64,000 nucleotides of DNA from a virus. Positions within the stretch are counted from its first letter, which is position 1. Every line of letters starts with the position of its first letter. Where the stretch lies: the IMG/VR virus record IMGVR_UViG_3300045988_159113. One strand, 5' to 3'. Of the stretch, positions 1,109-37,500 are shown piece after piece. Under the pieces are notes generated by a model. The model had not been told where the DNA came from and ran no database searches. It saw nothing but the letters and a program-made list of their open reading frames with translations. Position numbers and translations under genes: made by a program.

Positions 1109-1126
1109 ATTTAATTATATTTTACC

Positions 1127-5063: not shown

Positions 5064-5066
5064 TAT

Positions 5067-5682: not shown

Positions 5683-5683
5683 A

Positions 5684-6658: not shown

Positions 6659-6665
6659 AACACAA

Positions 6666-6719: not shown

Positions 6720-6753
6720 AAAAATATTATTATTGTCTAAAATATTAAAAATC

Positions 6754-7438: not shown

Positions 7439-7476
7439 AGGACAAGTAGGAGAATATCCTATTTGTCCTTTTTTTT
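7439..7476. terminator. bidirectional terminator between the convergent arms
   Basis: AAGGACAAGTAGGA pairs with TCCTATTTGTCCTT (14 bp, one G-U pair), loop GAATA. A T8 run follows on the + side and a T-rich tract follows on the - side. Confidence 0.7.
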
Positions 7477-12268: not shown

Positions 12269-13341
12269 TAGTCACACACCTCCTTTAATTGTCCAGATTT
12301 AAGCATTGCTGATTTCATATTGTTCAATTTTCTATGTATAGAACTATCTTCTAATGGAAAAGAATTCACTGATGTCATCTTTGATGAATTGACTAAATCA
12401 GCAATTTGTTTCAATGAATATTTCCCAATATCCTATAGTTTAAGATCTCGTATTCCAAAAGAGCCTTCTAGCATTGTATCTATCATTCTATTAACCTAAA
12501 ATTGAACTTGATATGCAATATCAGGATCTATAGAATCAAATACAGATTTCTGGCCAGTTATAAATTTAGAGTATTCAGTCACAAAGATTTCTTCATTTAT
12601 ATCATTCCTTGATCTGTTAGGATATGTGCGCGCCATTTTCTCATAATTAGGAAGCTATTCGGATAAAGATATGAGTTGCATATAAAGATCAGGCTTTGCA
12701 AACCTTAGCTATCCAATAAGCATGTGAGACAATTCATGTATAGGAGAATCAACAGAATAGTTGTTCATGTTTATATATATCTACCCATTTAGAATGAATG
12801 CTTTTGGATTTGGATCTACTGCTATCACATCTTTAAACATTGGATCATTATGCAAATCATGCAAGTATACCTATTTGAAATGTATACCATACAAAGTTGC
12901 AAGTTTTCCAAATGCTGTATCAAGTATAATTTTAGAATTAACTTCCTCGTCAGGCTTGTATCTAACTTCAAAATTATTGTTGTATTTACTTGGACGGTGT
13001 GATATATTAACAATTGATGTTTTATTTAAAGGTAAAATATCAAATTCCAAATCATTATATGTATCTTGAGTATTTAATAATACAACAGCCTCATCAACAG
13101 TGTCAACCTGAAATTTATCTGTCAATTTAGATGTTTCTGTTGTATTGTTTTCTCGCAGCTCTAAAAATTCACGAGCATGCTCAGTAGTATCAGATCCATC
13201 TATTTCTGCTGGAGTCGGCCATCTGCCATTATGCTTGTCAGCATAGTCGATTATTTCTGCTTCAAGAAATAAATCAGAGAGACCGGTCCTCTCACTCAAG
13301 GACCGGTACTCATAACTTTTTTTATTTATACATGCATTCAT
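12268..13341 (-). CDS. 357-aa zincin-like (HExxH) metallopeptidase
   Basis: ATG 13339..13341 lies 2 nt after the TGA of the upstream gene. It ends at TAA 12268..12270 and has six in-frame TAGs. The motif SPIHELSHMLIG places HELSH at 12724..12738. Confidence 0.7.
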
Positions 13342-13343
13342 TT

Positions 13344-16300
13344 TCAACAACCATTTTGTTTTTTCTTTTCTTGGGCTTTTATTACTTTAATTAGTGTATC
13401 TCTACTAATTGTTGCCGTCTTTTTATTTCTGCTTATTATGATCGGATTATTTCTTCCTTTTAACTGTTCAGCTGGAATTTTACGAACTCCATCAGAGAAT
13501 TCAATTTCAAAAGAACTCAATTTTCCTGCATTAAATTGTACAGAAATCCTTGGATAGTATTTTCGTTTTTTGCCATCTTCCTATTGTTCTATTTCTTCGT
13601 CTGGACGTTTTCCAAGTTCAATTAATCTTCTACTATCGCCTATTTCTTCAAGATTAATATTCTCAGAATCATTTTCTGGTTTATTCATATCTATTTTTTT
13701 CTTGTCAAACGTCAGCTTCTTTTCTCCATTTTCATATGTAATCTTTACAGCGCCATAACCAAAAGTGTATGATGATTCCATTACATCATTACGATTTCTG
13801 ACATCATAAATTTTGTGATAACCATATTTGTCTTGATCTGCGGCATAAATAATGATGAGATCTTCGCCATTTGGACCTGTGAATTTTACACGACTTGATT
13901 TTTGTAAAGAACCAGTTCTGAAGTACTAGGTATCAACTTTGGACCTTATTTCTTCAAAATTAGAATCATACCAATTTGCCCTTCTGATTTCTTCCGTGTA
14001 TTCGAAATCATATGGTACATCGTAATATTCATCTTCATCGTAGTAACTGTTTCCTTTTTTAGAAAAAGCATCCATATTTCTCAATGTTGTCCATTCTCCA
14101 GTATGCGGATTGCGCTTTCTAACATATCCACTGTTTGCTGTCTTTGCACTAAAAATAGGAACAACATAAGGAAGAACATCTTCCACTTTTATGTCAGCTG
14201 TATTGTACCCAACAGTGTAGCGATCGCCATGTTTATCTGCTTCAGCAATGAATTTCTCAAGTTCAGAGATTATTCTTGAATTAGAAGCATCAACCAATTT
14301 TGTGAAAGTATTTTCACCTAAATTTCTGCGCTAGGCAATTATATTATAATATGCAAAAATATCATGTATAGGAATACCTCCATATGCAACAGTGCTCAAT
14401 CTCATGTATGCATTGACATATTTGTCAAATATGTGCTAATCTATTTTCTCTCTTGGAGATAGATTGATTGTCGGAATAGAGTAGTACAACTCTTCATTAT
14501 GTGAAACCGTTTTGTTTGACGATACAACACCAAGACCTGCAACAAACTCATTTCCTGAGAATTGTGCTTTCAAATATGGGATAACATCCTATTCAACCCA
14601 AGCTCTAAACGATGCATTGTTGATATCAGAACCAAGTACCAACTCAATATCACCTTCCGTCTATATAGAATTGCCATCCTAATCAAAAACGGTTCCACCT
14701 TTTGGAATCTTGAACTTCTAGTTCTTTGAAACAAGGAACTCATCAAGCATAAGATCATCATAGAATCGCCTCAATCCTTTAATTATATCTGTATCAGATA
14801 CAGATGATAATTTTAATTGAGTCTTTACTTTTTTGTAATTATCCAATCCAAAGCGATACTTTGCAGATCTCAAACTTGCTCTAGTGGAAACTGTCAATGC
14901 CTTCAAGAATCCGTAGACATCCTCTTTCCCGAAAATGATTGCGAGAGAATTGAATGCAACTTTTTTGTTTTCAAAATCTTTGATTGCTTTATCTCTTGCT
15001 TCTTTATTGAAAACAAACTGTTCCAGATCGATAGCATTATCAACACCAAGCATTTCTTCAAGAGAAATCAGCATTCTATCTGACGAAATTTCTTCGTTTT
15101 TAAGACCTTGGTTCAAACTCAGAATCTGACCAAGAGTTTTCATCTCTTGTGCTCCTTCGAAAAGTTTTTTGAAATCTTTGAACTCTTCTTTATGTGCATT
15201 AATCACTTCTGCTTGAGTCACGTATGTGATTAACTCATCAATAGCATAGCAAACTTTTGCACTGAAATCTGTACGTCCAGCTCCTTTTCGTGCTTCTATA
15301 TATTTAGCTTTTAGTTCATTCAAGGAAGCGATTTTTTTCTCAGGTGTATCATCTTGATTTTTAGACATTACAGCTTTTTTCAATATTTCTTCACCTCCCG
15401 CTAACTGACATAACTCTTGATATACAGTTTTCTTTGTTCTCTCTCCATTTTGAGACATGAAGTTGTATTTGCGTTTCAAATAATCCCATGGTCCTTGTTC
15501 TAAATAACTAAATACACCAAATAACGTATTGAAAGAATCAGTTTGATCCGTGAAACTGTTTGCTTGCAAAATCTATATGGCAAGATCTCCAACTGGTCCC
15601 ATTATGATCTTTGTAAGTGTATCAACTGGAACTCCAATCGTTACACCAAAGATATACATACCTAATGTTGCAGGATTTGCATTCAGCTTGTTCAAGCTCA
15701 AATCCTTGGCATTATCCACAGATAAACTCAATAATGCACTGACAGCAAGAGCAGGATCATTCTATGCTCCTGCATCAAGCAATTTTCTCAGCAATTGAGC
15801 ATTTAGTGTATTTGGAGATTTTGGTCTTACGTCAGAAGGCAGGCCATAATGTCTCCCGTTTATTGTTATATTAAAATACAGAGAATTTTGTCTTGGGTCT
15901 TGATCTGAATTCATTATCAAATCATAGTAGTACTATATAGCAGACAATGCTTTCAATCCAACAGCAGCAATAGAAATACAATCCTTACCAACTTGGTTCT
16001 CAACAATACCATTTGCTTTTAATGTTACAGAACCAGGTTGTCTGTATTCAATATCGTTTTTCTTAGATGTATCTGCAATTTCATTCCATTCATCCTTACA
16101 ACTATCAATAGGCGTTCTTGATTCAATCATATTCGCAGGATCTTTTGATACTTCTATCATGGATGATATCGTGATATTGTTTGCAATCTATCTTTGTACA
16201 TGCGGAGATTTGATCCTTCTCAAATACAAATTGTGTTTATTGAAAATATACAGTAATGAATTATTGAACTTTTTAATTAGCTCTTCATCAGAAATACCTC

Positions 16301-19300
16301 TTGTACTATCAACAAATCCGTACTATTCTAATGTATCACGCAAATCTTTTGTGTCTGAAGTGTTTAGTTTTATTAACTTTGGTACAGTCTTCAACAATGC
16401 TATAATACTTGGAATGTTGACTTTCTTATCTAATTCAAAGAAGATATGTTTCTTGTCAGATGGTTTGAATAACCCGCCAAACTATTTGAAATAAGTAAGA
16501 GCTTCATTTGCACTCGTTCCATCCAAGTATTCAGTGTCATCATTAGAAGACTACATGTTATTTTCGCGAATCTTATACTCAACAGATGATGGAGCAGGAA
16601 TTCTTCTTGACTGCTGAATTTCCTCGTATGTATCATATTTTGCATACGGTGACCACAAATACAGCTTTCCTCCTTTATCAACAGAGTATGTAGCTAATGA
16701 TACAGTATCAATATCATAATCAGAACCTTGTAACCAAATCTGATCAGTAGATACGAATGCATTATTTACGTCACTGTCTACAAATCCAACCACACGCATG
16801 GGCATGAAAGAGTGCTGACACTATGCAGGAATACGAGATGCTACAATATCAAGTGTTGTTTTAAAAGATGCATACATTCTCAATCCTTCTGTTCTAAACT
16901 TTTCCAGTAAGAATTTCGAGGAGCTGCTAGACATAGATTTCAAATAATCTTTGAATACCTCTTTGATTTGTGCGCTCTCGCTGCTGTCTTTCAATTCATC
17001 TATTATATTGTTAAGCTATTCATTTGTTCCTGATTCATATACAGAAAAACAACGATCAATATACCGATCTATATTTGTATCATCTACATTGTTGCCCAAA
17101 GTTATATAGCTGTATTTGATATTATCCAAATAAAGTTCTGGATTATCTGTGACTATAATCTTCTGGCAGTACAAGTTATCCACAATAATTTTGTCATCAT
17201 TTCCAATTTGGAATAATTCTGCACCATTATCACTCAGCAAGATTTTGTTTCCGTTTATATCTATAGTTGTGCGTGGAGATATTTCGTGTACATCTTTGAG
17301 TTTCTTGGCATTAGCTTTGCTAATAATATAAAAATGTTCTCCTGTGATATTTTTGAGACATATATCATACAAATTCTTGGAAAGGATACCGTCCCAGTTA
17401 TCCATTAATCTTTTACCAAAAAATCCTAAATAATTAATATCATTAGTTGGTGTTTCGTTTTCTATGAAAGATTTAGATTCATAAGAATCCAAAATATTAG
17501 ATACTGAATCGCCTGCTTTTAATCCGTAAACAGTTGCCATAACTTTTGGCATCACAACTTCATATGGATCACATTCAACTGTTGATCTATCTACATCAAC
17601 TTCTTGTCCGTTTATTTTTACACGAGTCCGATTTGCAACAATCTGCCTCAAGATCTCTTTTTGCAAATAGAAAAATTCTGGTGTAAGTTCAAGGATTTTC
17701 CCATTGATAGTCAATTTACGTTCACCTGTTCTTCCAAGTACATAATTTACCCAGTCGCGAACTCTATCACAATATGCGATTGTATTATCAAAACCATCAC
17801 ATAATTTGTCAAATTCAGACAACAAATCCGCAGTGTTTTGCGATAAATTATTCAAATCATACTGCGATTCAATCCTAAGTTTAGAATCAATTTCTTTTAC
17901 GACTTTATTAAATCTTTCTTTGTCAGAGATTACTCCATAATCAATACCTACTGTTTTGATTCCAAATGATATCAACTCATCAAAATCTGGCTAATCTGAG
18001 GATTTGATTTTTTTGATTATTGATTTCAGTTTGAATAAGTTGCGAATTGAATCAATATCCATAAGCTGAAACTTATTTCCAGAAGTATCTCTGAATATGT
18101 AGTTTATACTAGACAATTCGTGTCCAGCATTAGCAACCTCTATGACTTTAGAAATTTTTCCTTCGTTAATCTATTCAGTTAGAGCGATATAATCTTCTGC
18201 TGATGTAAGCTTTTTCACCTTAATTCTAGCACGGTCATATATCTATCTTGCTTTTTCCTTAACTTGTTCATTCGTCAAATCTTTATTGAAATGTTTTTGT
18301 AATGCTTCATAAATTGAAAGTTCAACATATTCATTGAATGTTTGATCAGGCTCTCCGAATATTTCAAAAACATCTTTCAGATTCTACAAATCAAGTAAAA
18401 TTTGAGACCCTTCTATTCTGACACCTTCCTTTATATTTTTTCTTGTATCTCGAATTCTTATGATATCAAAATCATTGTATTTGGTAACATTCTCATCGTA
18501 TTTCCATAAGTTGGGTATAATTTTGTATGTCTTACCAATACGGATTCGTGATGTATCTATCTTCTTGAGTTTTGAATCAGATGCTAAATCAATGCCATTC
18601 TCTTGCATATATTGTTGCGATTTCATTTGTGAAATATCAGCAACATTTACATTGTTTGTTGGCTTTACCTTTACAACTATATCTCCTGGATTAGCATCAA
18701 TTGAATCACCAAATTTCTACTCTACAAGTTCATCCTTACCGATAGCATAGACAATTGGATCTTCAAGAATTTCGTATTCAATATCATTTGCATCATACAA
18801 CAAATCACCTTTTCTGAAGTCAAAACGATCATTGCTGTCTTTGAAGTTGAATGACACGATCATCGTATTATCTTCGCTGTTCTATTTGAACGATTGAAGA
18901 CCTTTGACGTTATATTTACGTGGAACTTTTACAGGTCGTTTCTATTCCAAGAAATGATTGTTTTTCTCTTGTAAGTTTTCACGAAGTGGGTTGTTATCAC
19001 TGCGCATAATAACAGCAATATTTTTTGCTCTAGTCAATGCGGTATACATCAGCTTGGATTTAACGTCATCTGTTGTCCGTTTGTTATGCATAATATCATC
19101 ATGCTGAATAAGGACAACATCATAAGTAGAACCTTGCGCTTTATGTACTGTTGTTGCATAAGAAAGTCCAACATCAACAGCATCATTGTCTTTCATCCAT
19201 TTTTTCAATCCTGGATTATTTTCTATAAAACGCTAGCCAAATTGCATTTCAGGTATTACAGTCAAAGAAACCGTATTGCCATTTGATAGTTCTACCTATA

Positions 19301-22300
19301 TTTCCTGCGTGTGGAATGAACGCTATGCATTATCTTTCCCAATCTATGCCTTTTGAGATACTGGATCTGATACACTGACAATTTTGCCCTCCATGGAATT
19401 TTCAACAATCTCTGTGGTTTGTTTCATTACGACAAACTCACCAATTCCATATTGATTCTTTTTGTACCCTAAATAGTCGTGTATCTTATTGTTGAATCTA
19501 TTCACCTCATTGTTAGTATATGCAAGTATTTTGATAGCGCTCACATTTCCAGCTTGCACAGATTCTTTTATGAATTTAAGCGTCTGATCATTTAGGTCTA
19601 AATTGCTAGAGTAGATTGCGCCACTTTCGTTTTCATTTGTGATATTCGGAGAAGTTATTCCTGGAACATTATCGTAAAATCTTTCTGCATATCTCAAAAT
19701 CGGGTTTTCACTAGATCCTTGTCTCATATTCTATTCAAGAGCGAATCTCAGTTTTACAAGATTCGGACCAGCATTTGGGCTGAGATACATGTCCGGCTCT
19801 CGCATTTCAGAATCAAATATTGTGTAGTTATTAAACAAATCGTCTTCTAATGCTGGCAACTGACCTTTGTCTCCAAGTAATAACAAGATAGAACCTGGTT
19901 TCATTTGCAATCTGATCATATCAATCTGCGAATTGCTTAACATGGAAATCTCATCCAATACAACAATATCTGCATTTTTGATTGGTGCTTGTTTACCAAT
20001 ATGTGTGTAATCAAATACTCCATCCGCATTTGGCTTTATTCCAAGCATCTATGCAAAACTCAAAGATTTATAATTTGAATATCGCCCATGCTTAATACTC
20101 TCTGATATATTGGAAGAGATTATATTTTTAGCTTTATGACTTAATGCTCCAACAATCAAATTCGCCTATGATGTTATCCTCATTGGTAAATTGCGCAATA
20201 TTGCATCCACAGTTGATGTCTTACCTGTTCCTGCTTTTCCATCAATTACGATTGTTGAAACTTTTGTTGATTCATCACCAAAGTTTTCCGTGATCAGTTT
20301 AATTGATTCGCGTACAGCCTCAGACTGTTTTTTGTTTAACTGGAAACCATTTGATATGATACTGTCAGATACACTTTCATCAGTAGGATTTAGTTCAATA
20401 TTGTCGTTGAATTTATTAGAGAAATTTTCACGCCCTTCTTGTGCATCTACATACATCATGGAAACTTCTGGATCTATGAATGTACGTCTCTCTCTAGTAC
20501 CTTGCTTTGTTATATCTATTTTTGACATAACGGAGTTTGGACCGCCGAGATATGTAATGCCATCGATACTATCAATTGCTTGTACAATAGCGTCTTTTGC
20601 TTTAGTATAGTTGTCTAGACGTTCTTTCTTACTCTTTGTTGTATCTGCAACTATTGCGAATTTAGATTTCAAATCTTCTGAAATGCCAGCAATTAAATGG
20701 TTTTCAAATTTATATCCATCTCCGCTTATATCTTTTGGACTTCTTGCTATATCTTCAAGTAAATTCAACAAATCATATAACTCATTGGCATCTTTTACAG
20801 ATTCTTGACGACCAAAACAATATGCTGTATTTTCAATATCTGTTTTTACTGAGTACAAAACTGGATCAATTCCATTCGGAGACATGTCCCAATTTGATTT
20901 ATCAAATTTACCTTCATGTATTGCTGCACAAATAGCTGATTGATCAAATGTGTCTTCAGTAGAGTGAGTTGAAAGCATTATCTTCTTATTCACCTATTGA
21001 AGCATTTGATACAAAGAAGAAGGAACATAATATTCCCATGTCTGTCCGGCCATTGCTAGCTCTTGCTTTATAAATGATGCATTTATAACCTCTTGAGAAT
21101 TAGATATTGCAAAGAAGTTTTGTCCAGCTATACGTATTGGTGCGATGATAGCATCATTGCCAAAGACCTTTTTGACATCTTCAACAGTGCCAAGTGCCCC
21201 ATCTTTTGAAAGCGATTCGTCATCACTACCGATTAGCAGAAGTGCTCCATCTCGTATCGCCAATTTCCCTTCGTCTATGATTGTTTTGTTTATATCTTGC
21301 TTCGGCTTGCTCTTTGGATTCAATGTGCAAATCAGTACAATATCACCATTTTGATACTATGAACAGTTGACTACATCTGGATCTTGTTTTAGTGCCATTG
21401 TGACACTGCGCTCAGACAAATAATTTTTTTCGCTATTTTCCGCAGATGGCAAATATCCTATATATTTGTTTGATATCTAAGCCATGACATTGAGCTGTTC
21501 AAAATCTTTTTGTATTTCCTGTTTCTTTGAAAATACAGGCTCGAGATTCGCTGTCTCAAATTCATACGCCCAAGATACATTCTCCAAAAGTTCTGCAAGT
21601 ATTCTTGCAAGGCTTCTGCTTGCTGGCTATCCATCATATATTACCTTTGACGTATCTTTTGCCATCATGTTTTTATAAGCAAGAATAAGTTTCGGATTTT
21701 GATATGCCCACAATTCATATAATGGTTTCAAAAATGTCTCGTATTCTTCTTCTCCATATTTTGATGGCTTAGTATCTGTTGCTTTGTTATAATCATCTAT
21801 TATTTGTTTGATTGATTTACCTGAAATGTCTTGCAAAGAATCTTTTTTCGCTGTAGATCGTGGTGGTCTCTTTGTAAATACAGGCTCTTTTCCTGGTTTT
21901 TTAGGCTCTTCGCCAGTTTGCGTTTCTTCCCATTTCTAATATTTAGCTTTTGCTTTCTCCCATTTAGCATGTGCATCTTCAAATTCTTTGTGTTCTTTTA
22001 TATATGCATCATGTCTTTTGTTGAATGATTCAATTGCTTCTCTTTGCTTTTCTTCATAGAATCCTTGAAGCTTTTGAAATATAGTGTCTGGCAAATAAGT
22101 TCCGGGTTTAAATGTTGCATTTGCTGGTAATAATGCACCAAAAGATGTCTGAAAATTGAAATATTCACCTGTTGGCAACTACTATGACCAGCGGTCTTTT
22201 GCCGGTCTATCATCAAATACAAATGTTTTTTCACGATATATACATTTACCTCCATTGATCACAGCCCAATCTTGATTAAGATGTTTTGCACTCATTACAG

Positions 22301-25300
22301 CAGCATATCCAATACCAGATTGTCCATCAGATAAGATTCTGATTTTTTGATCTCCTATGCTAGTTGTTATACCTTGTATAATTCCAACAAACGTTCTATT
22401 GAAATCTGATTGCTATATGAATTTGCTTTTGAACTTAGTAATATCATCGCCTATTATACAAATATTTCTTTTGTCTGTTGTATTAGCAGCTTTGATATTT
22501 TCAACAATAGTTTCGATTGTATTATTGATGAAACTCTAATTTCCAAGATCTGTGTCAGATATTTCTATTATATGCAAAAGTTTCTTTTTGTCTTTTGCTT
22601 TTTTATTTGCTGCATCTATGCGTTGCTGTAAATTAAGAATATCCTTTTGGTTTTTATCTTTTGTGAACACGTAAATCTCATCAGATTCTACCATCAACTA
22701 TTGATATAGCTATGAACGTCTCCCTTGTTCTAAGAATGTAAAATGCTCATCAAATTTTTCCCCATCAGTTTTCTCTTGTGTCTACTCTTCGCTTCTCTAC
22801 AACACATTCCGTTCCATTTTGGGAATTATTATCTTTGACTTATCTTCTGAAAATGCATAAGCATCAGCAATACTCTAATCATTTGCAAGACCATCAGCAG
22901 CATCATGCTCGCTATTGCCTTCAATAACATCCAAGAAGCCATATTCCCTGAACATCTCATAGGTTTTGAGATTATCTTTGCTAACTTCAGAATTTGCAAA
23001 TCTTATATCCTTGCCAATAGGAACAGCATTTGTAATAGCTGAGAATAAACTTGAAAGCTATTCTTCTGTCAATCCGTTTGTGTCCATATTGAATATGATA
23101 TCATATTCATTTGTCTAGAAATTGTATGTCAAATCTATATATCCATCATGGCCGTTTATACTATAGCGTGTAGCATCTACGTTCATGTGTTCTCCGTCAG
23201 CGTTTGATGCGGAAAGTGTGATTTGTTTAATATCTACATCTGTATTTCTATGCAAATCAAAAGCAGCATCTTGATCATATGAATTTTGTAAAGCGTTTAT
23301 TTCTGAATCAAAATCAGCGAAATCTTTTTTTAGTTTACCATTACCGTAAACGAGTACACAGTTATATGATGGAGTTAACACACTCAATGATCCAGATATC
23401 TTGTGCTTGATACCTTGCTTTGTGAGTATTGATGCAATAGATGATATAGCTTGTCTATATATAGATTTTGCACTGAATGGAATTTCCAATTCGGCATAAT
23501 CAATAACCTAGCCATGTCTTTCTTTATCCAATATTTCCTGGGCATACTGCTTTGCTCTATCTGTTTTGCCTGCTCTATTTGCTAATGTCTTTATGAGGCT
23601 TTTATTTATAGCAGCATAGAATTCTTTTGTTGCGTCGGCTACCTATGATTCTGTAGATTTCGGATCAAGCATTTTCTCAAATGGAACAATGAAATCTCGT
23701 GTTCCAACTTTATTCAAAGAATATAGGGCTTTGTACAAATTCTGTGCAACATCAAATGTGAATCCTCTAAATGCACATGCATTCATCACCTGTGTCATCA
23801 TCGAAAGCTCAGCCTCGTCTGCTTGGTGCTCCTTATCAAGCTGTATTCCAAACTGAGTTGTCAAGAAGTATGACCAATTTAATTTAGCATTTTCATCATT
23901 ATATACAGTATTTGGATTCATGTTGCACTGGAACATCTTAACAGCCCCCTCAGTTGGCATATAGTGTATATTGGCATGTTTAAGAACCTAATAGAAATAT
24001 TTGACACTATCACCATCTTGTATTTTTACAAAATCAAGCTCATTGTCAGTCGGGTCAAGTTGATCCTTAACAACACCTATATCATTTGCCATATCAGCAA
24101 TCATCTGTACGGATCGCTCTGAGAGAACAAGCTTGCCTTCTGTATTCTTTGAATACGAATTTTCTCCTCCGAAAATTTCCCAAAGTGTGTAGTTGTTGTC
24201 AATTTTAACAGCCTCACCTGTTGGCATGTTTTTGATAAGATTACCATAAGCATCAACCTATTGCAACTTTACATAATACATGTTAATGCCAGGAGCTTTT
24301 TCAAGAGAAACACGATAAAATTCTCCATTCTCTTTTTTATAGACAGGTCTCGTTGAGAAATCTATACGATTGCCTTCTATTGTCCTAGTAATATCTCCGT
24401 CCCATTCAGTACCATCTGGATTTATCCATTTCAAAGATGCGCTCATTCTGAACAGATTACGATATACGCTTGAACCACGCATGTTTTCATTATTCAATGG
24501 GAATGCGGCTGTCTTCATCATTCCAGCACACATGAGCCTCTCATTATAATAATGAGCATACGGTTTCTTTGTCTAGCCCACTCTAGCACTGGCAAGCGAA
24601 TTGTTTTCCCAATATACTTGCATTGGACTTGTAAATGTCGCACCATCAAACGGTTTCACTCTATCAGTTTGACCCAAGTTGTTATAAGCGGATGCATATA
24701 TGTCTTGAATCAATGCTAACTTTGCACGAGTTGTTATGCCATTCCTCTGCCCAAGCTGGGAACCTTCCATTGCTGCTGTAAGTGATACATTACGTTTTGT
24801 TTGAGCAAGATAACGCAACGATTCGGCTGCCATTATCTTTTCACGTTCTGTAATTGCAGAAGTCTTTCCTTTAGGTATATGAGAAATAATTGATCCAACA
24901 GAGCAGTGAGTATATTCAGAAGAAAGTAAATAATCCACAAGATTATACTGTTCCAACAATGGGTTCATCTCAACGTCAAATTTCCCATCTTTCAAAAATT
25001 CCTTTTCTGTTACGTTCGGATCAAGCAAATAGAGATCTGTGTAATTTTTTATATCGTAAATTTTACCGTCTTTTTTAATTTTTGCAATAATCATCTAGCC
25101 AGAATTCTCATCATACCAGAACACTCCTTCTTTCTGACGGATTGCATCAAAACGAGCCTTGAGATCAACAATTTCCGGATTATTTCCTCTTGCCTCTTTC
25201 ACTGCTGCTGATTGCCCGTTTGTCGCAAATGCAAGACTCAGGTCTATTGCAAAATTATTTTGCAATAAATCCCAGACAGTTTTCTTGTTTTTATAATTAA

Positions 25301-28300
25301 AGAATTCATCTATAGTATAAAAATCAGATAGGTTGATCGGTGTTAATCCTACATTGCCAATCTGTGTATTAAGATTCTCGACATAGTCTTTGTTGAACCT
25401 GTACAACAAAGAAATGATTGTGTCGTTGAACTTAATATTTTCATTTTTATCAAATGTGCAATCTACCTAATTATATAATTCTGCAGGGTTCACTCTTCCA
25501 TTATCTTCGGTATTATACCACAGCAAAGCTTTATCGAACAACTATTTGTGTGTATTGATTCCTATTTCTTTCAATCGTCCAGCATTTTCATTGAACCAAT
25601 TATAGAAAGACTAAAATCCAGATAATGCATGCGGTTCGTTTGCGTAAAAATTAAATTGAGGAATTCCCCATTTATCAATATATTTGTTTATAACGGTAAA
25701 AAACCCATTGCTACTGTTCACGAAATCTTCTGAGATATTTTCATATACCCTTCTGTATTGCAAACCAATTTCATTGCGTATAACTCGAAGCAATGTGTCT
25801 TTTTTCTGCTATGTATTCATGTTTTGATCATTCAACACCTTATACATAGTTTGATTATTATCCAATTTGAATAGAGCAAGATTGAATATCGCTGTGTTCA
25901 CTTCACTTTTATCTGAGTTCGTTGTTGGAAGTATACCAATAACACCATCACCAAAAATGTCTTTGCTAGTCGATCCTGTTATTAAGTTTTGGCTAGATGA
26001 TTTTTTCATTAGTCCAGATATGAACTGATACAAAAATCCTCCATACATAAATTCAGCCGTGTTGAATTTTACGGTTCGTTTGCCTTTCTGTGCATACGAA
26101 TAGCTTTCAAGATTCTTGGCAACGCCAACAAACAATCCTGGCATTTTGACAAAAGCAGAATCTTTTGTTGCTGAATCTTCTTTTGTACATTGCAGCTCGA
26201 CCTATTCCTAAATACTACCCAGTAATCTGCTCATGCTATATGGTGAATATGCTGATCCATTTCCAGATTTCACAATTGATGGCATATTCATTTCTTTCAC
26301 AGCAAACACAGCTCGTGCTATTCTTATAAATTCAGGAGTCATCGTTGGAGTTATCAAAGAAAAACTTTTTCCTAATAATTCCGGCGCATCATTACTTGGG
26401 AAATATTTTTCAACTAATGCAACCTTATCATCACGTGTTTTTTCATTTGATAAACCCGTTTGCAACTAATCTTTCAATATAGCATTTGCTTTTATTTGAT
26501 TAGCAAACAAAAACAGGTCTTTGACAGCATTAAAATCACTTCCAGATCCCTTGTATTTTTTGAAAAGATAATCATTATATCCAAACCCAAGACAAGTCTG
26601 ATTCGATACAAATCGCTTCAATATTCCAATAATATTACCAGCATCTTTGCTTGGAAGATTATCGAAGAAATCCTTCACACTCTAATCAGATAATACAATC
26701 CGACCTGAATCTGTGTTTAATAAAGTTATCGTAGGCTTTTTTGGATTTTTTGTGTCTGTTTTTACGGTAATTTTATACCCGTCTCCTGTAATCCAATATG
26801 TGATTTTGTTTGGGTTCTTTTCGTCAACCTACGCATTATGTCCTTCAACTGATAATTTTAAAGCATGAGATCCGTTGATATTGTTTTCAAGCCTGATTTT
26901 CAAATTATCAAATTCCTGATCAAAAAGATATCTGACTCTAGTTCTTCCTCTTCTGTCTGTATAATATTGCGTGATTGCATTTTTATATATAGTTGCAGCG
27001 TTTTGCGTAAAATTATACAGAATGTCACGATTCACATCGAGATGATACAAAGAATCACTTTCTGAGGAAAATATGCCTCTATAAATAGAGAACAATTTGT
27101 CTTTCTTTTCTTTTGTATCATATCCATACTGTGCAAACAACTATTTGATTATCTCTTCATTTTGAAATTTAGCATTGTTTAATAATTCCAAAACATACCG
27201 TATGTTGTTTTCCATGTCAAGTTTCATTGATGTGATACAACGCCGTAATGTTTTGTGCTTTTCAACATATGTTTGTGTTTCTTTACTAAGGCCAAGATCG
27301 GATATTTTTGCGCTAAATAATCCATCAGCTCCTATTTCTACATAAGCGCCTGGAGATGATGCCATTGTTTTAATGTCTGCAATTACAGTTGCAAAATCAG
27401 AATAACTCAAATACAAATCTGGCTTTGCTTTTTTAGTTACAGAATCATATTCAGATGTTGTTTCGATTCCACCTTTTACAATGTAATTGATTAACTTGTC
27501 AACTATAATCTCATCTGCTTCAGCATGCGTCGTTCTATTTGTGTGACTTTTATTTGCCAAAGCATATGCCATATATCCGTTGTGTTGTTGCTATGTACTT
27601 GGCAACATCTCAATATCTTTTCCAAATAGTACAGTCAGGAAGGAATCAAAATTTGACAACAGAACAAATGCATTGTACGCATCAATAAATGCTTGAGCTT
27701 TCTTTCCGTTTTCAGTTTTCGGTTCACTCTCTGCAATATTTGCTTGTTCCAAAATATCTTCTGATGTGAATCGGTTGAAAAAGTCTTGTAATCTTGTTTT
27801 GTTCAGATCAAAAAGATATGTTGGCATTAAATTGTCACTTGCATCTTTCCTGTATAATGTGCCCGTGATAGAATTTTCACCTTGACCTTTATTTGCATTG
27901 TAGTACTCTACAAGAATCCCAAATTGGGATTCCTGTAAAGTTTTGAGATTATTATTCATCTAAAGTTGTGAAGTCACTGCACCGGCATTATCTTCTCCTC
28001 CTATCGAGCCTCTATTGATGAAGCATGATTCCCAGATGTATCTTGTGAATTTATCCTCGAATCTAGACCTTAACAGATACATACCACGAAATGCATAATC
28101 AAGGAATAGCAAATTCAATTCATTATCAGCATGCTTTCCATACACACTTTTTGTAGTCTCAACATTTGATTGTGTAGTACTTGGAGTTTCTGGATCAGCA
28201 GTTGCTTGTGTTACACCAGTGATTGCTCCTCTAATTATTGGACCGAAATCAAAATTGCTAAATCCTGAAGCATTTGAAAGTATTGTGTAATAAAGAGACG

Positions 28301-28535
28301 ATTTGATTATTGGCTCTGCAAGTCCAATAAAATCATCAACATGATCTTTTATGTCTGGGCTAGAATTCAAAATGTTTTCTCCGATATGTTTGCATATTGT
28401 TTGTGCCCAAGCAACAAATTTTTTTTCTGGAGTTGAATTCTATTTCATTACGTCCATAAATATGGACGTGCTGCCCATTAAAGTGGTACGAACAACAGAT
28501 TTTGCTGTTTCTTCATTAAATTTACATTTATTCAT
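13344..28535 (-). CDS. 5063-aa giant multidomain protein: SLOG-like motif, Dda/RecD-type SF1B helicase core and beta-prime-like DxDxD RNA polymerase catalytic loop
   Basis: One frame runs from ATG 28533..28535 (first ATG after in-frame TAA 28551; 11 nt after the upstream gene's TAA) to TGA 13344..13346. Every gap between track ORFs was hand-scanned: 66 in-frame TAGs and zero TAA/TGA. Confidence 0.8.
16707..16721 (-). other. DYDID (DxDxD) metal-binding motif of a two-barrel RNA polymerase
   Basis: The reverse complement GATTATGATATTGAT encodes DYDID. Context: IVASRIPA[TAG]CQHSFMPMRVVGFVD..NNAFVSTDQIWLQGSDYDIDTVSL. This parallels bacterial beta-prime NRAPTLHRLGIQAFEP...NADFDGDQMAV. Confidence 0.65.
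19023..20240 (-). other. SF1B (Dda/RecD-like) helicase core inside the 5063-aa ORF
   Basis: Motif I GKAGTGKT (20217..20240), II VVLDEISM, III LLLGDKGQLP, V ATTVHKAQGSTYD, VI YTALTRAK (ending at 19023). The motifs are in canonical order and are separated by seven in-frame TAGs. Confidence 0.75.
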
Positions 28536-28545
28536 ATCATCAATT

Positions 28546-31500
28546 TTAACTTATAGAAAGGACTATTGAACAAATTCCTGTTTGATTTTCTTCAATATCT
28601 TGTTTGAGCTTTTGTGCTAGTGTTTCAAGCTGATCGACTGCAGTTTTTAAATCTATTTGCCCATTTTGAATATCTTGTATTATAGTAAGATTTTGACTAG
28701 TTAACATTCCTATAAGGATATTTACTCCTTCATCTAATCTGGTAAACGAGCTTAAAATATCAATTGCCTGTATAAAGTTACTAATTTCCGTCTTGATAGA
28801 ATCTTCATATTCAATTTTCTAAGTATTACCATTTTCATCAGGTATCATTTTCTCTATTATCTTTTTTCCTTGATTGCTCAAAATAGGTGTAGGAGGAGTT
28901 CCTGGCGCGCCAACAATGCTAACATTGTTCATTATTATATTTGCATCGCTACCCAACTAGACCTATACACCACTACTTGATCCTCCTTCACTTCTGGATT
29001 CTGGATGCTTTTCAACTGAGTAGTTTACACGTAATTTTCCGGTTGCCATATCAGATTCAAAATTTATGGTTAATTTATCACCATTTGAGTTTTTAAATTC
29101 AATACCCAACAATGTTTCTGCATTTTCATCGCTAATTAAATCAATATCAATATCATCTGTAAATTCAAAATCTATATTTTCAAAATTTATATTTTGATAT
29201 TGCGGTATTGAATTGAAAATCGCCTTCCAACTTGTAAGAGAGTGTGAGATGACTGGATACTATATAGTTTGTCCGTTTAACGTACCATTGAGTTGAGTGC
29301 ATTTTCTAATGTTGCACACAAATGCAGTATATTGCATATTTTGAATATCATTCGGTTTTATCCTTCTTGCATTTTTCGGTGGGAATATATCAGCATCTCC
29401 GTCTAATACAATGTCAAGAAAACTCTCATCACCTCCAAATAAATGTTTTGCTACTTCAGCCTTAAATTCTTCATCAGTTAATGCTCTGCTTCTACTTCTA
29501 CCTCTTGATTGAGATCTCGTGTAAAAGAATGGGTGTGGCTTTCCGGTTCTTCTATCAATATTTGTGTATCCATACAAATCGTCATAGCCATTTCTTTTGT
29601 TCTCTTGCTCAGCATGATCAATTGTTTCCAAAAACAAATTGTATAAATTAGTTAGGTTAACATTAAATGCTGGTGTATCAAGTTTTCCATATACAGTGCA
29701 AGGCCTACCTTGTAACGAGTACGTTGTAAAACCATACATATCTCTATCTTGGTCTATTAATCTAAAATCATCCTGTCTGTCTTCATTACTTTGATGCTTA
29801 AACTTAGCAACCGATCTCACTGCATATTCATCTCCAAGTAATGCTTTAAATGCATTAATCCTTGCTGTGTTTATCGTGTCTGAATTATTATCATATGCTA
29901 TGTGATGTAATAAATCATTACATAAAGCTGTGAGTGAGTGCTATGTGGTTATGTCCTGAAGCCCTTGTTTTACAGTTCGTGTGATTGTTATATTATCTAT
30001 GTCGGTATAATTATATTCTCCTCTTATGGTATGTGCTATTGCATTTAATATCGTATGAGCTAATCCATGCGACGCTGTTTCCACAGTCGAGGTTGCCAGT
30101 TGCCAGCTTCTTGATGTGTTCTTGTATTTTGCAATATCAGATCCATCAAGGAAATTCCTCAATTTAGTCAATCTGTTATTATCAACTTTCCCATCAGATC
30201 CAATGATTGCATCTCGCAAGATCTTATATGATGAGAATTTGTTTCCAATTCTGAAATTACCAGAAGCACTGCGAGTTAATATTCCATGAAGGTTTTCACA
30301 ATATTCTTCAACACTATAAAGAGGTGTGTATACATAGGCGTAGAAAACATCTTTTCTTGAATTAGGATTATTTCTCTACTCTTTAAATTTATCAATCAAA
30401 TCTCCTTTTGTGTATGCAGGATTGAAAGAATACAAGACGAACGGCATACCAGATTGAACCTCTATTTTTTTACCAGGTTGAATCTCTATGTTTTGAATTT
30501 GTGATGTCAGCATTAGCATGTCTGTTTTTATACACATAGGATTAGACAAAGCTTTTGCAACTTCTGTTGCGTTCATTTTATCTTCAGCCTTGAATCCCAA
30601 ACGTGGATCTAATGCAGTAGATCCTCTTTCGGTTGATCTTGTATTTGACTGTGGGTTGCCTATACTTGCAAGATTAGTATTTTTTGGCAAAAAAACGATG
30701 TCATGATTAGTACTGTCAAAGAACTTAAATGACTATAAAAGCCATTTTAAAGTGTTTATCTTTTTCTTGTTTTTCGCAGTATTTGCATTTGATGCACTTT
30801 CTCTTGCCTCAATCTCTGTTTTCAAAACAGTCTATATACTTGTAGACTTATTATGCGTTTCGTCACCAGAGGTCAATACTCTATCGATTTTTTTGAGAAT
30901 ATTATTTTGAATAGTATTCTCATCATTAAACAGATCTAAAAACTCTTGACTCTAAATCAGTGAGAATGGATTGTTTAATGTCATCATTGGTAATTCCAAG
31001 AATAGCTGTGATGTGTTTTTCCCATCTGCGTCCTCGCTCTCAATTCCAATAAATGAGACAATTTGATTTGGACTTGGTGGGATATCCATGTCTTGATTAA
31101 ATTCAAGACGCTCCGCTTCGTTTCTGTTAAAGATTCCGTATCTTTGACCACTGTAGTTTGTTTGATCTTCCAATGTATTTCCATCTGGTCCATATTTCAC
31201 AAATCTTGTTTTTATTGCATGATCTATGAACAGATTGCCTATTTCAGCATTGAAAACATCTTCTTTTACATTAGCTCTTGTACCATCTATTTGTATATTT
31301 TGACTTTGAACTTTTGACTTTACAAAAGCAAAAACATTTGTACATGCTGATTTGATCTATTCTTTTAGTGTATCATTATTTACAGTACTTAAAAGTGCAG
31401 CTCTAAATGGAGCAATTAGTTTGATAGCATCTTCTCTAGTAAAAAGACTGCGGAATGTATCAAATACGTCTTTGTTAATAGCAAAATTGTCATATCCGCA

Positions 31501-34500
31501 CCAATGAGCAGCGAGTTTCGCAATACCATTGATACTGTCAATTCTATGTGAATTATGTTCATAGTCGCTTTTTCTTTCTCCTGTTGTGACTATTTTCCCA
31601 TTGCCATCCCAAATAGCACCTGTCTCAAATGTATTGAAACTGAAAATCAAGCCTTTCAATCCGTCTGGATTATCAAAATCCACAAAATGTTTTTCTTCTT
31701 TAGATCCTGTACCACTATTGCCTGTTGGTGGTTCTTCTCCAAAGCTATCATCAAACTCATCCCAATTCACATCATCAAAAGATTCTGGTTGAATTCTTTT
31801 TTGGAGTACAAACTCATTGAAAGCATCCTGTAAAAAATCAAGTATTCTGTTATCGTATTCAATAACATCTCCATATTTATTTCCTGCCGTTTTATTTTCA
31901 TCAATACTCATATCTATGACTTCAGAAAATGTGTCAGGTTTAATTATGTTATAAATATGCAAATTACCAAATTTTGTTTTTAATGCTTGAGTTAGTGATG
32001 TAAGTTCTGGGCTAGATTTTACATAAGAATCTGCCATAAATGGAGAACCACCTATCAACAAATCCCATTTCCCGTTTGGCCTTAATATTGCACAAATCTC
32101 TGCATTATGATTGATTCCATGTGGATCAATACCAAATCGAATTCCAAGAGTTCCGTCATCGTTAATCTTTGCAATATACTTTTGCGAACCATCGCTTGCA
32201 ACCCAAGGAATCGGCATGAGTTCTAATTCTTCACCATCATATTCAATTTTGATTTTTGGATCACTCTCAAATGCAGATATGGCTTCGTCGATATTAAGAA
32301 CAAATGAATCTATTCCGCTATTAACGTACCCATTATTGTTTAATATATCAAAAAGCTATTCAAACGATAGTGTGTTGATATCTCCATTTTCATCAATATA
32401 TTGAATAGTGTTTGCGTCTTCGTCAAAATTTAAAATAGTGATTTTTTTATCTGTAGTTGAATAAGACAACCCCTACGTGACACTTGCCTTGAATACATCA
32501 AATGCAGAAGGAATAACCGGTGGAGGAGTTAATTTGATTAAACCTCTAGTGATTCGATCGTTAAACTCATCATAATCCATTGTGTGTTCTGTTGTTGCAT
32601 CTGAGTATTTAATATCTACCTATTTTGTAGCTTTTACTACTACATCAATAAATGTATGCTCCTCTATTGTTCCAGGCGAAGTTTCCATGTAAAATTTAAT
32701 GCCTGGAGTGTATCCTTTTGCTTGCATCTCGCCAAGTCTTAAAGACCTTTCGATTGCCATTTCTGCTGCATTCCACGTAGTTCTTGGAGCATGGCCTCCT
32801 CCAGTTCCACCACTAGGACTTGGTCCAGAACTAGGTGCTGGAGATGGACCTGATCCAGGTACAGAAGTAGTTGGTCCGGTTCCAGGAGTAGGACTTCCTC
32901 CAGGTGCTGGAGATGGACCGCTGCCTGGTGTAGGACCAGAACCAGGAGTAGATCCTTGAGTAGTAGGTGCAGCAATAACTGTTCTTTCTTTGTATTCAAC
33001 ATCATCACTGGCATTTGCCAATGCTGCAGTCAAAATTGTTTCTTTCTTTATTGCGTAGTTTTCAATTGCTTTTTCTGAAAGTTTTTCTAATTGATACGAA
33101 GATTCTTGTTCACAACTCAAATTTATACGACCAGAACCATCGATTGATTGAATATTCGGATATACAGTATTCCCTATGCTGTTCGTAAAATTTAAAATAG
33201 TAGCAATTTCAGAACGAGTTTGTGCAGTATATAAATCTTTCAAGAATGATTTCGTACTTTTACTTTTTTCAGATCCTACGTCATCAATGTTAAAATCAAC
33301 AATGTAATATTTACCTTCAGATCCTTGAGCAGATGTACCAGGATACATTTCTATTTTATCAGCATAATGAGTTGTCAAATATTTGTACATGTCACTATTT
33401 GTGTCATTATAGATGTATCCAACTTTTTCTCCATCTGCTAATTTTGCAAACATTGAATCTATAAATTTATGGTCAGCGCTAGGATTTATTGTTTGAATAA
33501 AATCACCAATCAAACCTTCATCATTAGAATAGTAATATTTTAGTTTTACATCACCACCAGATTTGTTTTCTTGTAATGTTAAAAGCTGTTTCCCATTGAT
33601 GTTCTTCAGATTGTTTCTTGTGCGCATTGAGAGTCCCATCTTGTAACTATGGCAAAAATTTTGACGTTCAATTTCGCTTTCCCATTTATACATTACACCA
33701 TTCAACTCTACATCAAATGCACCATATGACTATGACTGATTTGTGTCACCAGATATAATTACAGCAATACCATGTCTTTCTGCAAATTTTTGTAGAAGAT
33801 CAAGTTCACAACTATTGAATTGTGAAATTTCATCTATTATTATAATTTTTGGAGCATCACTTTTTGTTGATACATTAAATTTGGCGCGAAGTTCATTTTC
33901 ATCATCAAATTCAAGATCTTCACTTTTAACATTAATTGTACCATCTTCGTTTACGCTGTATATTTCATAATCTGGTGCAGCATATTTCATCAGCTATTTT
34001 TTATTCATTACATTAGCTGAATCTACACCACAATCTTCTGCAAGTTTTTGTGATTTTTCTGTAGATTTTACATTGTCTGCATCATTATATCTATCTGCAC
34101 CATGACAAACAATTGCGCCTTCAAGAAGATCAGGACGATATTTCTTGATCATGCTTACAACCATAGCGTCACACGCTGTAGTTTTTCCAGTTCCAGGACC
34201 TCCTTCATTAAGCACAAAGTTTTTGTATCTGAAAAAGCCAAATACATTCATGATGTATTTATCGTTCTCTGGTTTCAGCAAATTTGCATATTCCCTCTTA
34301 AAATTCTTTATTGCTCTTTTATCTGCTTCTGAAAAACTAGCCCATTCTTTCATTATGGCCTTCTTGACCGCAGACTCAAACTTTGTATACATATCACCAT
34401 TGAACACAAACGCAACTTGGTTCAAAATATTTGCCTCTTGTGTTGTTATTGGAGCATATTTTGAATTTATGGATTTTCGTGTATTCAAATACATTTTGTG

Positions 34501-37500
34501 TAGCTTGCTTGACTTTACCGCTGCACATCTCATTAAATATGTAACAAAAGCAATAGGATCAACTTCATTCAAATTTTTTGTCAATGAATAGGTCTTGTTT
34601 TCATAAAGATTCAATTTTCTTGGCTTAATAATTCTTGCCAGTTCATCTTCTGTTAAGCTATTAAATAAATCGTAGAGTTTGTCCTCAATTCGAAGAGACT
34701 ATTTTGTTATATTGATCTATTCTTCTTGACTTGGTACTGACGTGATTCCAGAATCTAGCAATCCCTACAAAAGATTGCTTTTATTCTCTAGAATATCTTT
34801 CAATTCCTTAAAATGAACGTTGTTTTTTATATCATCGTCATCATCGTCCAAAATCTACACAAATGTTTTCACGCCTTTGAAATTCAATCTGTGCAAATTC
34901 ATTGACACTTTATCTTGTTCTTGTAATTTCTGGCCTTCGTTTATATCCATCAGTGTCTTAGCAAACTAAACTTTTGCTATAAGAGCATCAACATCATTCA
35001 GAAAAACATCAGCTATATCTTTATCAATCTCGGCTAAATCTGTCCAATCCTCAGTACCCTATGCATGATTGATATCATTCAATGCTTTACTATATCCATA
35101 TATATTTAAAATGTCAGCATTATCAACTCTTGATCCACTGATAGCAGCACGATACATTTTTAGTAATTCCAAAGCATTATCAAATGCTTCACGCATTGTT
35201 GGATCAAACTAGACATCTCGCAAATTATGCTTTGCATTGTCCATTGCTGTATATGCAGCATTTATTAATTGGAGGATATCAGTGTACTATCCAGTCAAAG
35301 CAATTGAAAATTGTTTCAGACTTTCAGAGATTGGAGAATTCGCCTTTTCTCGTATAGCTATTTCTGCAGCTGCGAGTTTACTCTGTAATGATGTCAATCT
35401 ATCTATTACAATATCTTCGTCTTCAGGTGACAAAAATTCACCTGTTCCTTCTGTTAATTTCTTTAGTTTAGTTTTTACGTTTTCGTTTAAATTTTTTAAA
35501 AATGTCAAAAGTGCAGATTTTACTTCTGGATGCAAAAATTCCTAAGATGTAAACTTTTCAATAATTGAATCAAAATTATCGTAGAGTATGTTTTCTTGTT
35601 TATCCTAATAATCTTTTTGTTTTAGTTCTAGTTTTTCTTGTAAAGCTGGAATAGTTGGATCTGAATCATCTAATTCAGCGATTTGCTATTTGATATTATC
35701 AATTTCATCAGAAAGTGTATTCAAAAGTCCAATTTCATATCCCGATCCCTCTTGCTCTGTCAAAAATTCTTTGAGATAGTTTTGTTGAGAGCCTATTGCA
35801 TTCTGTGCATTTTCCATCCAGATATCTTCGCCAAGTTCTGTTGGCATATTAGACATCATGTACAGTTCATGAATCAGCTAAGTAAGACCTCCAACGGTTG
35901 CGTTGTTAGCCTGTGCTTTATATGCATCAGCCTAAGTTGATAAGATATTGCTTGTTCCGCGCAATACATCAACAAATTGTGTAGCAATGTCATGTATTTT
36001 TTGTTTACCTTCTCCATTTTTCAATTCGTTAAACTTCGCAACAGCATCGCTAATTTCAGACTCAGTTAATTCATTGTATTTTTTATCGTACAATTTTTCT
36101 GCATATAGCGGTAAGATTACAGTTGTCAATTGTCCACTCAATGCGGTATTCATTTCAAATAATGCATCTTGTATGTATTTGGCAGCGTGCTTTCCATTTA
36201 CGAAATCTTGCACTTTCTTTTGTGCTTTTTCATAATCTTCAGTAAGTTTCTTCAGCTGATTTTCCTCAATTATAGTAGTTTCCTCTTTCCTTTCCGCTGC
36301 TTTTTTAGCATCTGTTTCTGGTTCGTGCGAATGTTGAAAATCATTCAATAATTTAGAAGCTTTAACTAAATCCGTGCATGCTGTGTTAAATTGCTACAAG
36401 TACATTCCTGCTGTTGTTGCTTTTCTTAAAGCATAGAAACGTAAATCTTTCAACGCACTCTAATCCAAGAAACTATCGTCATCAATAGCAGCACCTTCGG
36501 CATTAAGAGTGTCAACTATCAAATCAACCTATTTTTTTACTGCATTCTTTATATCGATAGTTTGATTGTGTTTTTTATCGCCTGGTTTATAGATAATGTT
36601 GCCATCTTCATCTGTCGTAGTTTCGAAAGTCAAGCGTTTGTTTCCAATTTGTAAATCATTGAAATCCATTTTGTCAATTGACTTTTTAAACTCAGAAACT
36701 TGTTTCGGATCTCTGCATATACTGACCAATTCCTATATAGCTGTATCATAATCAAGGGATTTCATATATCGCATACCTTGATAGCTGGTGAATGCGTTTG
36801 TAAAACTACCACCAGCCATACCGCCAAAAAATGACATGAGATATCGGTCTTTTGCATTTTCCCAGGCCCCCATCTTATGCTCATCGTCTCCCTGCAACCA
36901 CTTTACTGTATTATAGCAAGATTTTGTAAAGTCAGCAGAAAGTTCCTCAATAACCTCTTCTATACCTTCGCCAAGTCCACCAGCCAATGTCGCTTTTGTC
37001 ATAAGGCCAGGTGTGCCATTGGCATATTCTGCCTTTGCTATCTTTTTACCAATATTGAACAAGCGATATATGTATTGCTTTTTACCCTCATTTGGCAATT
37101 TCTTGATTGAACGCTCAACAAGGTCACCTCCGGTGTCTTTCATATCTTGAGTGATAGCTTTAACTAAAGCCTTGTTTTTGAATTTATCAGCACGTAATTC
37201 AGGCAAGATCCATTCTCCTATTCCTGTATTTAAGATTGCGGCTTCTTGTGCAGCATACCCAATAGCGACCATTGCAGCTTCAAGATCAGTTGCTCCAGCT
37301 TCTTTTGCTTCACCATAAGTATCTAATGTTGTGATACCGTTCATGTAGGCCTTACTAAGTACTTCGCCAACCTTTTGATATCCTTTCAGGAAAGTGTTCA
37401 TGTCTCGCTCTGCATTTATTGCAGCCACAGCCAACAACTCATTTCTCGCTTTATCTGCTGAAAACTGATCAATAAATGTCCGCGATTTAGTGAGATCTTG

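Follow-up and report, generated by a model that had tools for sequence, protein, structure and literature searches.

The minus strand of the window (the whole stretch of 64,000 nucleotides analysed here, from the IMG/VR virus record IMGVR_UViG_3300045988_159113) carries a giant open reading frame (ORF) predicted to encode a single-chain crAss-like two-barrel RNA polymerase (RNAP) with an embedded helicase. From the evidence presented below, we consider it very probable that this ORF of 5,063 amino acids (aa) is a single-polypeptide two-barrel DNA-dependent RNAP, homologous to gp66 of the Cellulophaga phage phi14:2 (PDB 6VR4), the virion-packaged single-subunit RNAP of Crassvirales, and that it belongs most likely to a Zeta-group phage. 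The main features of the gene are as follows (DPBB, double-psi beta-barrel).

13344..28535, minus strand: giant ORF of 5,063 aa, running from the ATG at 28535 to the TGA stop codon at 13344-13346, in which 66 in-frame TAG codons are read as Gln.
23859..24896, minus strand: region of the putative DPBB-B (beta-like) partner barrel, aa 1214-1559, placed by the full-length hhalign alignment to gp66 880-1094.
17544..23858, minus strand: connector between the barrels, aa 1560-3664, equivalent to the gp66 Connector (1095-1238) and greatly expanded.
16536..17543, minus strand: beta'-like (DPBB-A) barrel region, aa 3665-4000, which includes 16551-17015 and is placed by profile, structural and gp66 mapping.
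16686..16853, minus strand: catalytic block LDIVASRIPAQCQHSFMPMRVVGF...LQGSDYDIDTV, aa 3895-3950, the best conserved in the family (posterior 9).
16821..16823, minus strand: in-frame TAG codon for aa 3905, the invariant Gln of the RIPAQ motif.
16707..16721, minus strand: DYDID, with the predicted Mg2+-binding aspartates D3939, D3941 and D3943.
15936..16031, minus strand: bridge-helix equivalent, aa 4169-4200, NQVGKDCISIAAVGLK aligned with GGKSGVGITANML of gp66 (1529-1559; posterior 9).
15642..15758, minus strand: trigger-loop equivalent, aa 4260-4298, SALLSLSVDNAKD aligned with SAFLNAFVDNAKD of gp66 (1598-1636; posterior 9).

The 5,063-aa ORF is genuine under TAG readthrough, with which the minus strand from 13344 to 28550 forms one frame of 5,068 codons devoid of TAA and TGA. 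When translated with the standard code, the window splits into short ORFs between 8 and 32 kb, and the longest ORF found anywhere in it has 485 codons; the recoding of TGA or TAA instead of TAG gives no comparable gain in ORF length. TAG in the giant ORF is best read as Gln, because the TAG columns behave like canonical Gln columns (in standard-code homologs Gln occurs at 13% at the 66 TAG columns and 16% at the canonical Gln columns, with a background of 2.9%) and because the TAG codon of the catalytic motif aligns with an invariant Gln. Across the minus strand of the window, 14 of the 18 genes contain in-frame TAG codons, none of these genes terminates at TAG, and TAG supplies up to 43% of the Gln positions (16-30% in the seven giant ORFs). 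The 11 plus-strand ORFs (0.2-7.4 kb) possess no in-frame TAG, and one of them (6853-7392) terminates at TAG. The window is thus split in its genetic code between positions 1-7400 (plus strand), devoid of recoding, and positions 7475-64000 (minus strand), which are TAG-recoded.

An earlier reading of this DNA, made from the sequence only, had noticed at 16551-17015 a DYDID motif resembling the catalytic loop of bacterial beta', preceded by an R-x-P turn and accompanied by a TAG-encoded residue. This segment does lie within the 5,063-aa ORF, and its minus-strand translation, which corresponds to aa 3841-3995 and reads ...LDIVASRIPA[TAG]CQHSFMPMRVVGFVDSDVNNAFVSTDQIWLQGSDYDIDTVSLA..., reproduces verbatim the peptide quoted in that reading. 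The parallel from R-x-P to DxDxD extends to gp66, in which YRIPNQGQSS..IVGI...GSDFDIDK corresponds to SRIPAQCQHS..VVGF...GSDYDIDT of the window protein. Likewise, the TAG codon (aa 3905) aligns with the invariant Gln of ARIPAQ, gp66 having RIPNQ where the window protein has the TAG-containing RIPAQ. With this catalytic-motif Gln being TAG-encoded, the enzyme therefore cannot be made without suppression. A bare DxDxD is uninformative, because about two are expected by chance (2.07 expected in a protein of this size with 7.4% Asp, and 1 observed). The three Asp of DYDID are invariant in all 20 of the 20 non-redundant homologs, and aa 3901-3950 are better conserved than any other part of the protein (mean identity of 60% in the MAFFT alignment of 21 non-redundant members). 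Knowing that Ile or Val at position 4 of the motif marks all crAss-like RNAPs, and Gly all other RNAPs (bioRxiv 10.1101/2020.03.07.982082), the Ile present at this position in the window protein (DYDID) matches the crAss-like type.

To compare the two groups of proteins, a gp66 family of 56 non-redundant IMG/VR sequences was aligned by hhalign, in local mode, with the 21-member family of the window protein. At full length, the match reached 98.2% probability (E 3.4e-14) over 1,091 aligned columns, while the reversed-template control gave 0.1% (E 0.77). Sub-regions of the window protein match gp66 independently and in colinear order, namely aa 1420-1750 (90.1%, E 1.6e-6), a segment of the connector with a deeper profile (92.9%, E 3.7e-7, to gp66 1042-1250), aa 3860-4010, which hold the catalytic block (97.1%, E 7e-11), and aa 4010-4400 (96.8%, E 2.5e-10). 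When the domain limits published for gp66 (bioRxiv 10.1101/2020.03.07.982082) are mapped onto the window protein, the DPBB-B region (gp66 880-1094) falls at aa 1214-1559, the Connector (gp66 1095-1238) at aa 1560-3664 and DFDID (gp66 1361-1365) at aa 3939-3943. The pairs RIPAQ...GSDYDID and RIPNQ...GSDFDID, and NQVGK..I.IAA and GGKSGVGITA, are aligned with posteriors of 8-9, and the trigger-loop motif VDNAKD is common to the window protein and gp66. The DNAK block was also considered as the bridge helix; this placement is ruled out, the gp66 mapping putting the block at the trigger loop.

Structures were compared using AlphaFold 2 models of P0004, a homolog from the database that shares 33% identity with the window protein over the module. 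Model 2 (P0004 aa 1130-2010, comprising DPBB-A, the bridge helix and the trigger loop; alignment of 36 rows) has a mean predicted local distance difference test score (pLDDT) of 84.0 and a predicted template modelling score (pTM) of 0.72, and displays a 41-residue helix at the bridge-helix position. Searched with Foldseek against the 350,542 chains of the PDB, this model matched 6VR4_A, the virion RNAP of phi14:2, with E 1.7e-5 and a probability of 1.00 over 688 columns. It is the only PDB match with E<=1e-3; ranks 2-50 consist entirely of beta' chains from bacteria and Rpb1 chains of Pol II, individually non-significant (E 0.06-0.4). Thus, the comparison of an AlphaFold model with gp66 that the sequence-only reading had proposed supports, through the homolog P0004, its view of DYDID as the beta'-like catalytic loop of a two-barrel RNAP, and significant matches were found both at the profile level (gp66 family) and at the structure level (6VR4). 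The comparison with QDE-1 and YonO, also proposed there, fared less well: both proteins are absent from the top 50 Foldseek PDB matches of model 2, no profile comparison having been made, and the relationship is transitive only, through gp66 (bioRxiv 10.1101/2020.03.07.982082).

The evidence leans in favour of a second, beta-like barrel located upstream in the same chain, at aa 1214-1559. Within this region the following elements were located.

24783-24797, minus strand: KRNVS, inside the DPBB-B region.
24702-24719, minus strand: LALIQD anchor, aligned with VAVLEN of gp66 (posterior 8-9).
23931-23948, minus strand: GAVKMF anchor with the conserved Lys, aligned with GVKVGA of gp66 (posterior 8-9).

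The two anchors correspond to a strand of the pattern NIAVI.D and to the Lys of G.K.G.

In model 1, which covers both barrels (P0004 aa 351-1550; overall pLDDT 75.9), the putative DPBB-B region is beta-rich with a pLDDT of 80-92, and confidence collapses after the motif, where the alignment thins. The centre of DPBB-B (DGATF...KK...IIKTAGF) is specific to the family and cannot be aligned to gp66. Compared with the BFVD by Foldseek, model 1 matched chunks of giant crAss-like virus proteins (ctYsL76 with E 3e-12, cr108_1, cr118_1 and others). The connector between the two barrels is regarded as part of the clamp (PMC10770324).

The DNA-level search of IMG/VR retrieved at least 68 related phage loci, on contigs of about 33-197 kb (mostly 98-197 kb), the full-length homologs being mostly 2,900-3,900 aa long. 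The proteins of the two loci L057 and L061 reach 3,921 aa each, which exceeds the usual length in the family by about 600-800 aa. The family uses three codes (standard, TAG-recoded and TGA-recoded), and LQGSD[YFL]DID is invariant throughout. In the phage collection, megablast found no match and tblastn found two only, the unannotated records MT835470 and MT835492. About 80 of the 102 database homologs (P0002, P0003 and P0008-P0091 among them) end exactly at LQGSD[YF] or LQGS. Because of these endings, and because an ORF for a LAGLIDADG_2 homing endonuclease fills the gap between the N- and C-terminal RNAP halves at two loci (L151:9577-10554 and L153:7880-8566), the sequences indicate that an intron has homed into the catalytic DxDxD codons of the relatives. 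The window copy of the RNAP gene is uninterrupted at DxDxD and free of this LAGLIDADG element.

Several results weigh against the proposal that the 5,063-aa ORF is a crAss-like RNAP. First, scanning the full protein directly against Pfam and PHROG reveals a superfamily 1 (SF1) helicase only and no polymerase, and HMMER profiles of the family found no match among the PDB sequences, although gp66 (6VR4) was in that library. Second, the structural evidence comes from the 33%-identical homolog P0004 and not from the window protein, and the template-modelling score of the model to 6VR4 is low (TMq 0.28). Third, the partner barrel, for which the sequence-only reading had advised a search including the conserved Lys, was recovered in part: a colinear region with such a Lys exists, but its N-terminal half alone does not match gp66 significantly (E 0.03-0.13) and the two-barrel model 1 has no significant Foldseek match in the PDB (top E 0.18). 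Fourth, a tRNA gene search of the 64-kb window found none, so that no suppressor tRNA lies there. Finally, Zeta-group membership, which we regard as most likely, is drawn from shared traits and not from a phylogeny of TerL, the portal or the major capsid protein, and virion packaging, early-gene transcription, DNA-template specificity and helicase function are deduced from homology and context only.

Similarly to gp66, the window protein would have its elements in a single chain in the order DPBB-B, connector, DPBB-A, bridge helix and trigger loop, and both proteins share the RIPxQ strand, GSD[YF]DID with Ile at position 4, the GK..GI.A bridge-helix motif and the VDNAKD trigger-loop motif. Both genes stand at the end of a late structural block, with giant proteins on their flanks. 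The two proteins differ in that their identity is as low as about 13-15%, detectable by profile-profile or structure comparison only, and in that the window protein has 5,063 aa, as compared to 2,180 aa for gp66, is TAG-recoded, and adds both a helicase-bearing insertion of about 1.5-1.7 thousand aa (kaa) in the connector and a family-specific elaboration of DPBB-B. A cleft-blocking domain like that of gp66 was not identified in the window protein. The cellular beta'/Rpb1 subunits (NADFDGD) also possess the R-x-P strand, the DxDxD loop, the bridge helix and the trigger loop, whereas the window protein has Ile in place of Gly at position 4 and would have both barrels in one chain.

The Zeta-group crAss-like phages, proposed as the Echekviridae (PMC12386605), have genomes of 145-192 kb and are characterised by an RNApB' gene, mixed codes, introns inside DxDxD and a giant multidomain transcription block with PDDEXK (Yutin et al. 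2021, PMC7886860; PMC12386605). The window and its relatives resemble them in several respects: they are human-gut phages with contigs of up to 197 kb among the relatives, close relatives use the TAG, TGA or standard code, the DxDxD-bearing giant ORF lies in a block of large proteins, and the genes of relatives are broken in DxDxD by LAGLIDADG elements. Stop-codon reassignment also varies among the family members, and within the window TAG is recoded in the minus-strand block only. The finding thus fits an already known kind, the RNApB' gene described for the Zeta group, where it would otherwise be expected, but the window copy differs from it in being uninterrupted at the motif and in carrying an additional helicase insertion. 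The insertion and its helicase are located as follows (SF1 helicase families as found by Pfam and PHROG).

18126..23210, minus strand: in-frame lineage-specific insertion of ~1.5-1.7 kaa, aa ~1776-3470, in the inter-barrel connector.
18996..20468, minus strand: Dda/RecD-like SF1 helicase domain, aa ~2690-3180 (Pfam Viral_helicase1, AAA_19, AAA_30 and UvrD_C_2; PHROG 325, E 1e-50).

As far as the sequences can tell, the sole architectural novelty of this polymerase is the placement of an SF1 helicase between the two barrels. Apart from the window, the insertion occurs only in three loci that are ~96% identical (L001-L003), the other 65 of the 68 related loci being devoid of it. Its TAG density, which we regard as normal, is 17 per 1,000 aa, as compared to 11 per 1,000 aa elsewhere in the protein. 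The motifs of the helicase are intact (Walker A GKAGTGKT, Walker B IVVLDE, III GDKGQL, V TVHKAQG and VI YTALTR), and the ~1,100 aa of the insertion lying outside of it hold no recognisable domain. Judged by eye only, a stretch of the insertion, SDGQSGIGYAA, resembles SLOG/DprA. A recent copying of the embedded helicase from the SF1 domain of the 3,379-aa ORF found upstream is ruled out, the best E value between them being 0.02.

A comparable protein occurs in the uncultured phage cr118_1 (Suoliviridae, Crassvirales; MT774379), the 4,946-aa QOR58373, which likewise joins an RNAP core of the gp66 type to an SF1 helicase of the RecD/Dda type; it matches the same Pfam families as the window protein (AAA_30, AAA_19, UvrD_C_2 and Viral_helicase1). 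In QOR58373 the RNAP core occupies aa ~2630-3420 and the helicase is C-terminal (aa ~4440-4910), whereas the helicase of the window protein sits between the barrels. Its gene is located as follows.

L154:1123-15963 (MT774379): RNAP-helicase gene of cr118_1, annotated 'DNA helicase'.

The gp66 orthologs of 143 annotated crAss-like phages carry the labels RNA polymerase, DNA helicase, DprA-like or DUF1768, and we noticed that some orthologs are mislabelled as DprA-like, DUF1768 or nuclear-pore-like. The association of an RNAP with an SF1 helicase takes three forms, the helicase being C-terminal in cr118_1, inter-barrel in the window protein and part of a separate, neighbouring giant protein in all the relatives.

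By analogy with gp66, we propose that virions would carry the window protein and eject it together with the DNA, to transcribe the standard-code early genes. Indirect signs of this are the position of the gene in the TAG-recoded late, structural block and the absence of in-frame TAG from the block on the opposite strand. The catalytic Mg2+ would be coordinated by the DYDID aspartates D3939, D3941 and D3943, in an active centre completed by the bridge helix (aa 4169-4200), the trigger loop (aa 4260-4298) and the RIPAQ strand, with the beta-like barrel lying upstream. The RNAP gene lies in the late, TAG-recoded structural block, in which TAG specifies Gln, including the invariant Gln of RIPAQ. 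The embedded helicase plausibly gives the polymerase a capacity for DNA unwinding or translocation. More specifically, and only tentatively, a functional Dda-like helicase in the clamp connector may form a covalently coupled helicase-polymerase, which would melt or reel in the phage DNA to provide a single-stranded template.

An alternative, which we regard as doubtful, is that the protein is a polyprotein cleaved around the insertion, so that the SF1 helicase would be set free and the two halves, beta-like and beta'-like, would form a split, two-subunit RNAP instead of one 5,063-aa enzyme. The insertion does sit exactly between the barrels, the 360-aa ORF located downstream carries a HELSH motif, and crAss-like RNAPs and adjacent virion proteins are sometimes fused in huge polyproteins that probably undergo cleavage, the gene of a zincin protease lying beside them (bioRxiv 10.1101/2020.03.07.982082); but neither cleavage sites nor, by Pfam, a protease domain were identified, and the relatives devoid of the insertion keep both barrels in one chain. 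It is far more improbable that a selfish element, intein-like or otherwise mobile, makes up the insertion and is removed at the RNA or protein level to leave a mature RNAP like those of the relatives of ~3.1-3.4 kaa. Introns and inteins abound in this phage group (Yutin et al. 2021, PMC7886860), the same gene is interrupted by a LAGLIDADG-bearing element in most relatives, and the insertion is limited to one shallow clade. However, the insertion is in frame, with a TAG usage like that of the rest of the gene, and carries an intact helicase; the Pfam and PHROG scans found in it no intein, Hint or homing-endonuclease domain; and it occupies a variable loop, whereas inteins and introns typically home to conserved sites.

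We give marginally less credit still to the view that the ORF product resembles an RNAP but is devoid of catalytic activity, serving as virion cargo or as a structural protein in which the motif is a relic. The activity of the window protein is a prediction only, the sequences are extremely divergent, and the DFDID of gp66 adopts in crystals a conformation incompatible with catalysis; yet gp66 carries the same motif and is active as an RNAP (bioRxiv 10.1101/2020.03.07.982082), and the three Asp, RIPAQ, GK..GI.A and VDNAKD are invariant or nearly so across a deep family using three codes. Lastly, the notion that DxDxD arose by chance in a giant protein with a tail or structural role and no relation to polymerases, for which spoke the two or so motifs expected at this protein size and the silence of Pfam and PHROG regarding a polymerase, is refuted by the hhalign score with its clean reversed control, by the single significant Foldseek match to 6VR4, followed by 49 RNAP large subunits, and by the invariance of DxDxD in the family.

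The RNAP gene is surrounded by the following genes.

28546..38685, minus strand: upstream giant ORF of 3,379 aa with 36 TAG codons and an SF1 helicase P-loop domain.
12268-13350, minus strand: downstream ORF of 360 aa with HELSH (PIHELSHML, HExxH motif).
7475-12268, minus strand: downstream ORF of 1,597 aa with a PD-(D/E)XK nuclease domain at aa 172-364 (E 1.9e-8).
48112-49986, minus strand: 624-aa ORF in the structural block, its N-terminal 350 aa belonging to the zinc-dependent alcohol-dehydrogenase family (PHROG 2640, E 4e-40).

The 3,379-aa ORF has its Walker A motif, GGPGTGKT, at aa 1495 and comprises a Pro/Gly/Ser-rich low-complexity linker; in the relatives, its counterpart (3,043-3,053 aa, AAA_30) precedes the RNAP gene. 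The 360-aa ORF, for which Pfam gave no match, could be the counterpart of gp65, the zincin-like protease that flanks gp66 in phi14:2, as judged from its motif. PDDEXK domains, like that of the 1,597-aa ORF, occur in proteins of the crAss-like transcription block (Yutin 2021, PMC7886860). The C-terminal half of the 624-aa ORF has no assigned domain. TerL was not identified within the window, and the structural neighbours had no PHROG matches. The GC content is 0.32-0.36 in the transcription block of giant ORFs (8000-36000) and 0.37-0.44 in the structural genes (36000-64000).

Together, these findings assign a crAss-type RNA polymerase to a very divergent giant ORF of a TAG-recoded gut phage, which neither Pfam nor PHROGs see as a polymerase. 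They provide residue-level landmarks (both barrels, DYDID, the bridge helix and the trigger loop) for a lineage in which introns and recoding usually break up the RNAP genes, and the intron-free, unusually large window copy offers a convenient full-length reference for the family. If the coupling of the helicase to the polymerase is true, the recurring RNAP-helicase fusion would point to an obligatory helicase partner in crAss-type early transcription, and it leads to the testable idea that crAss-like polymerases of the virion may depend on an SF1 helicase dedicated to them.

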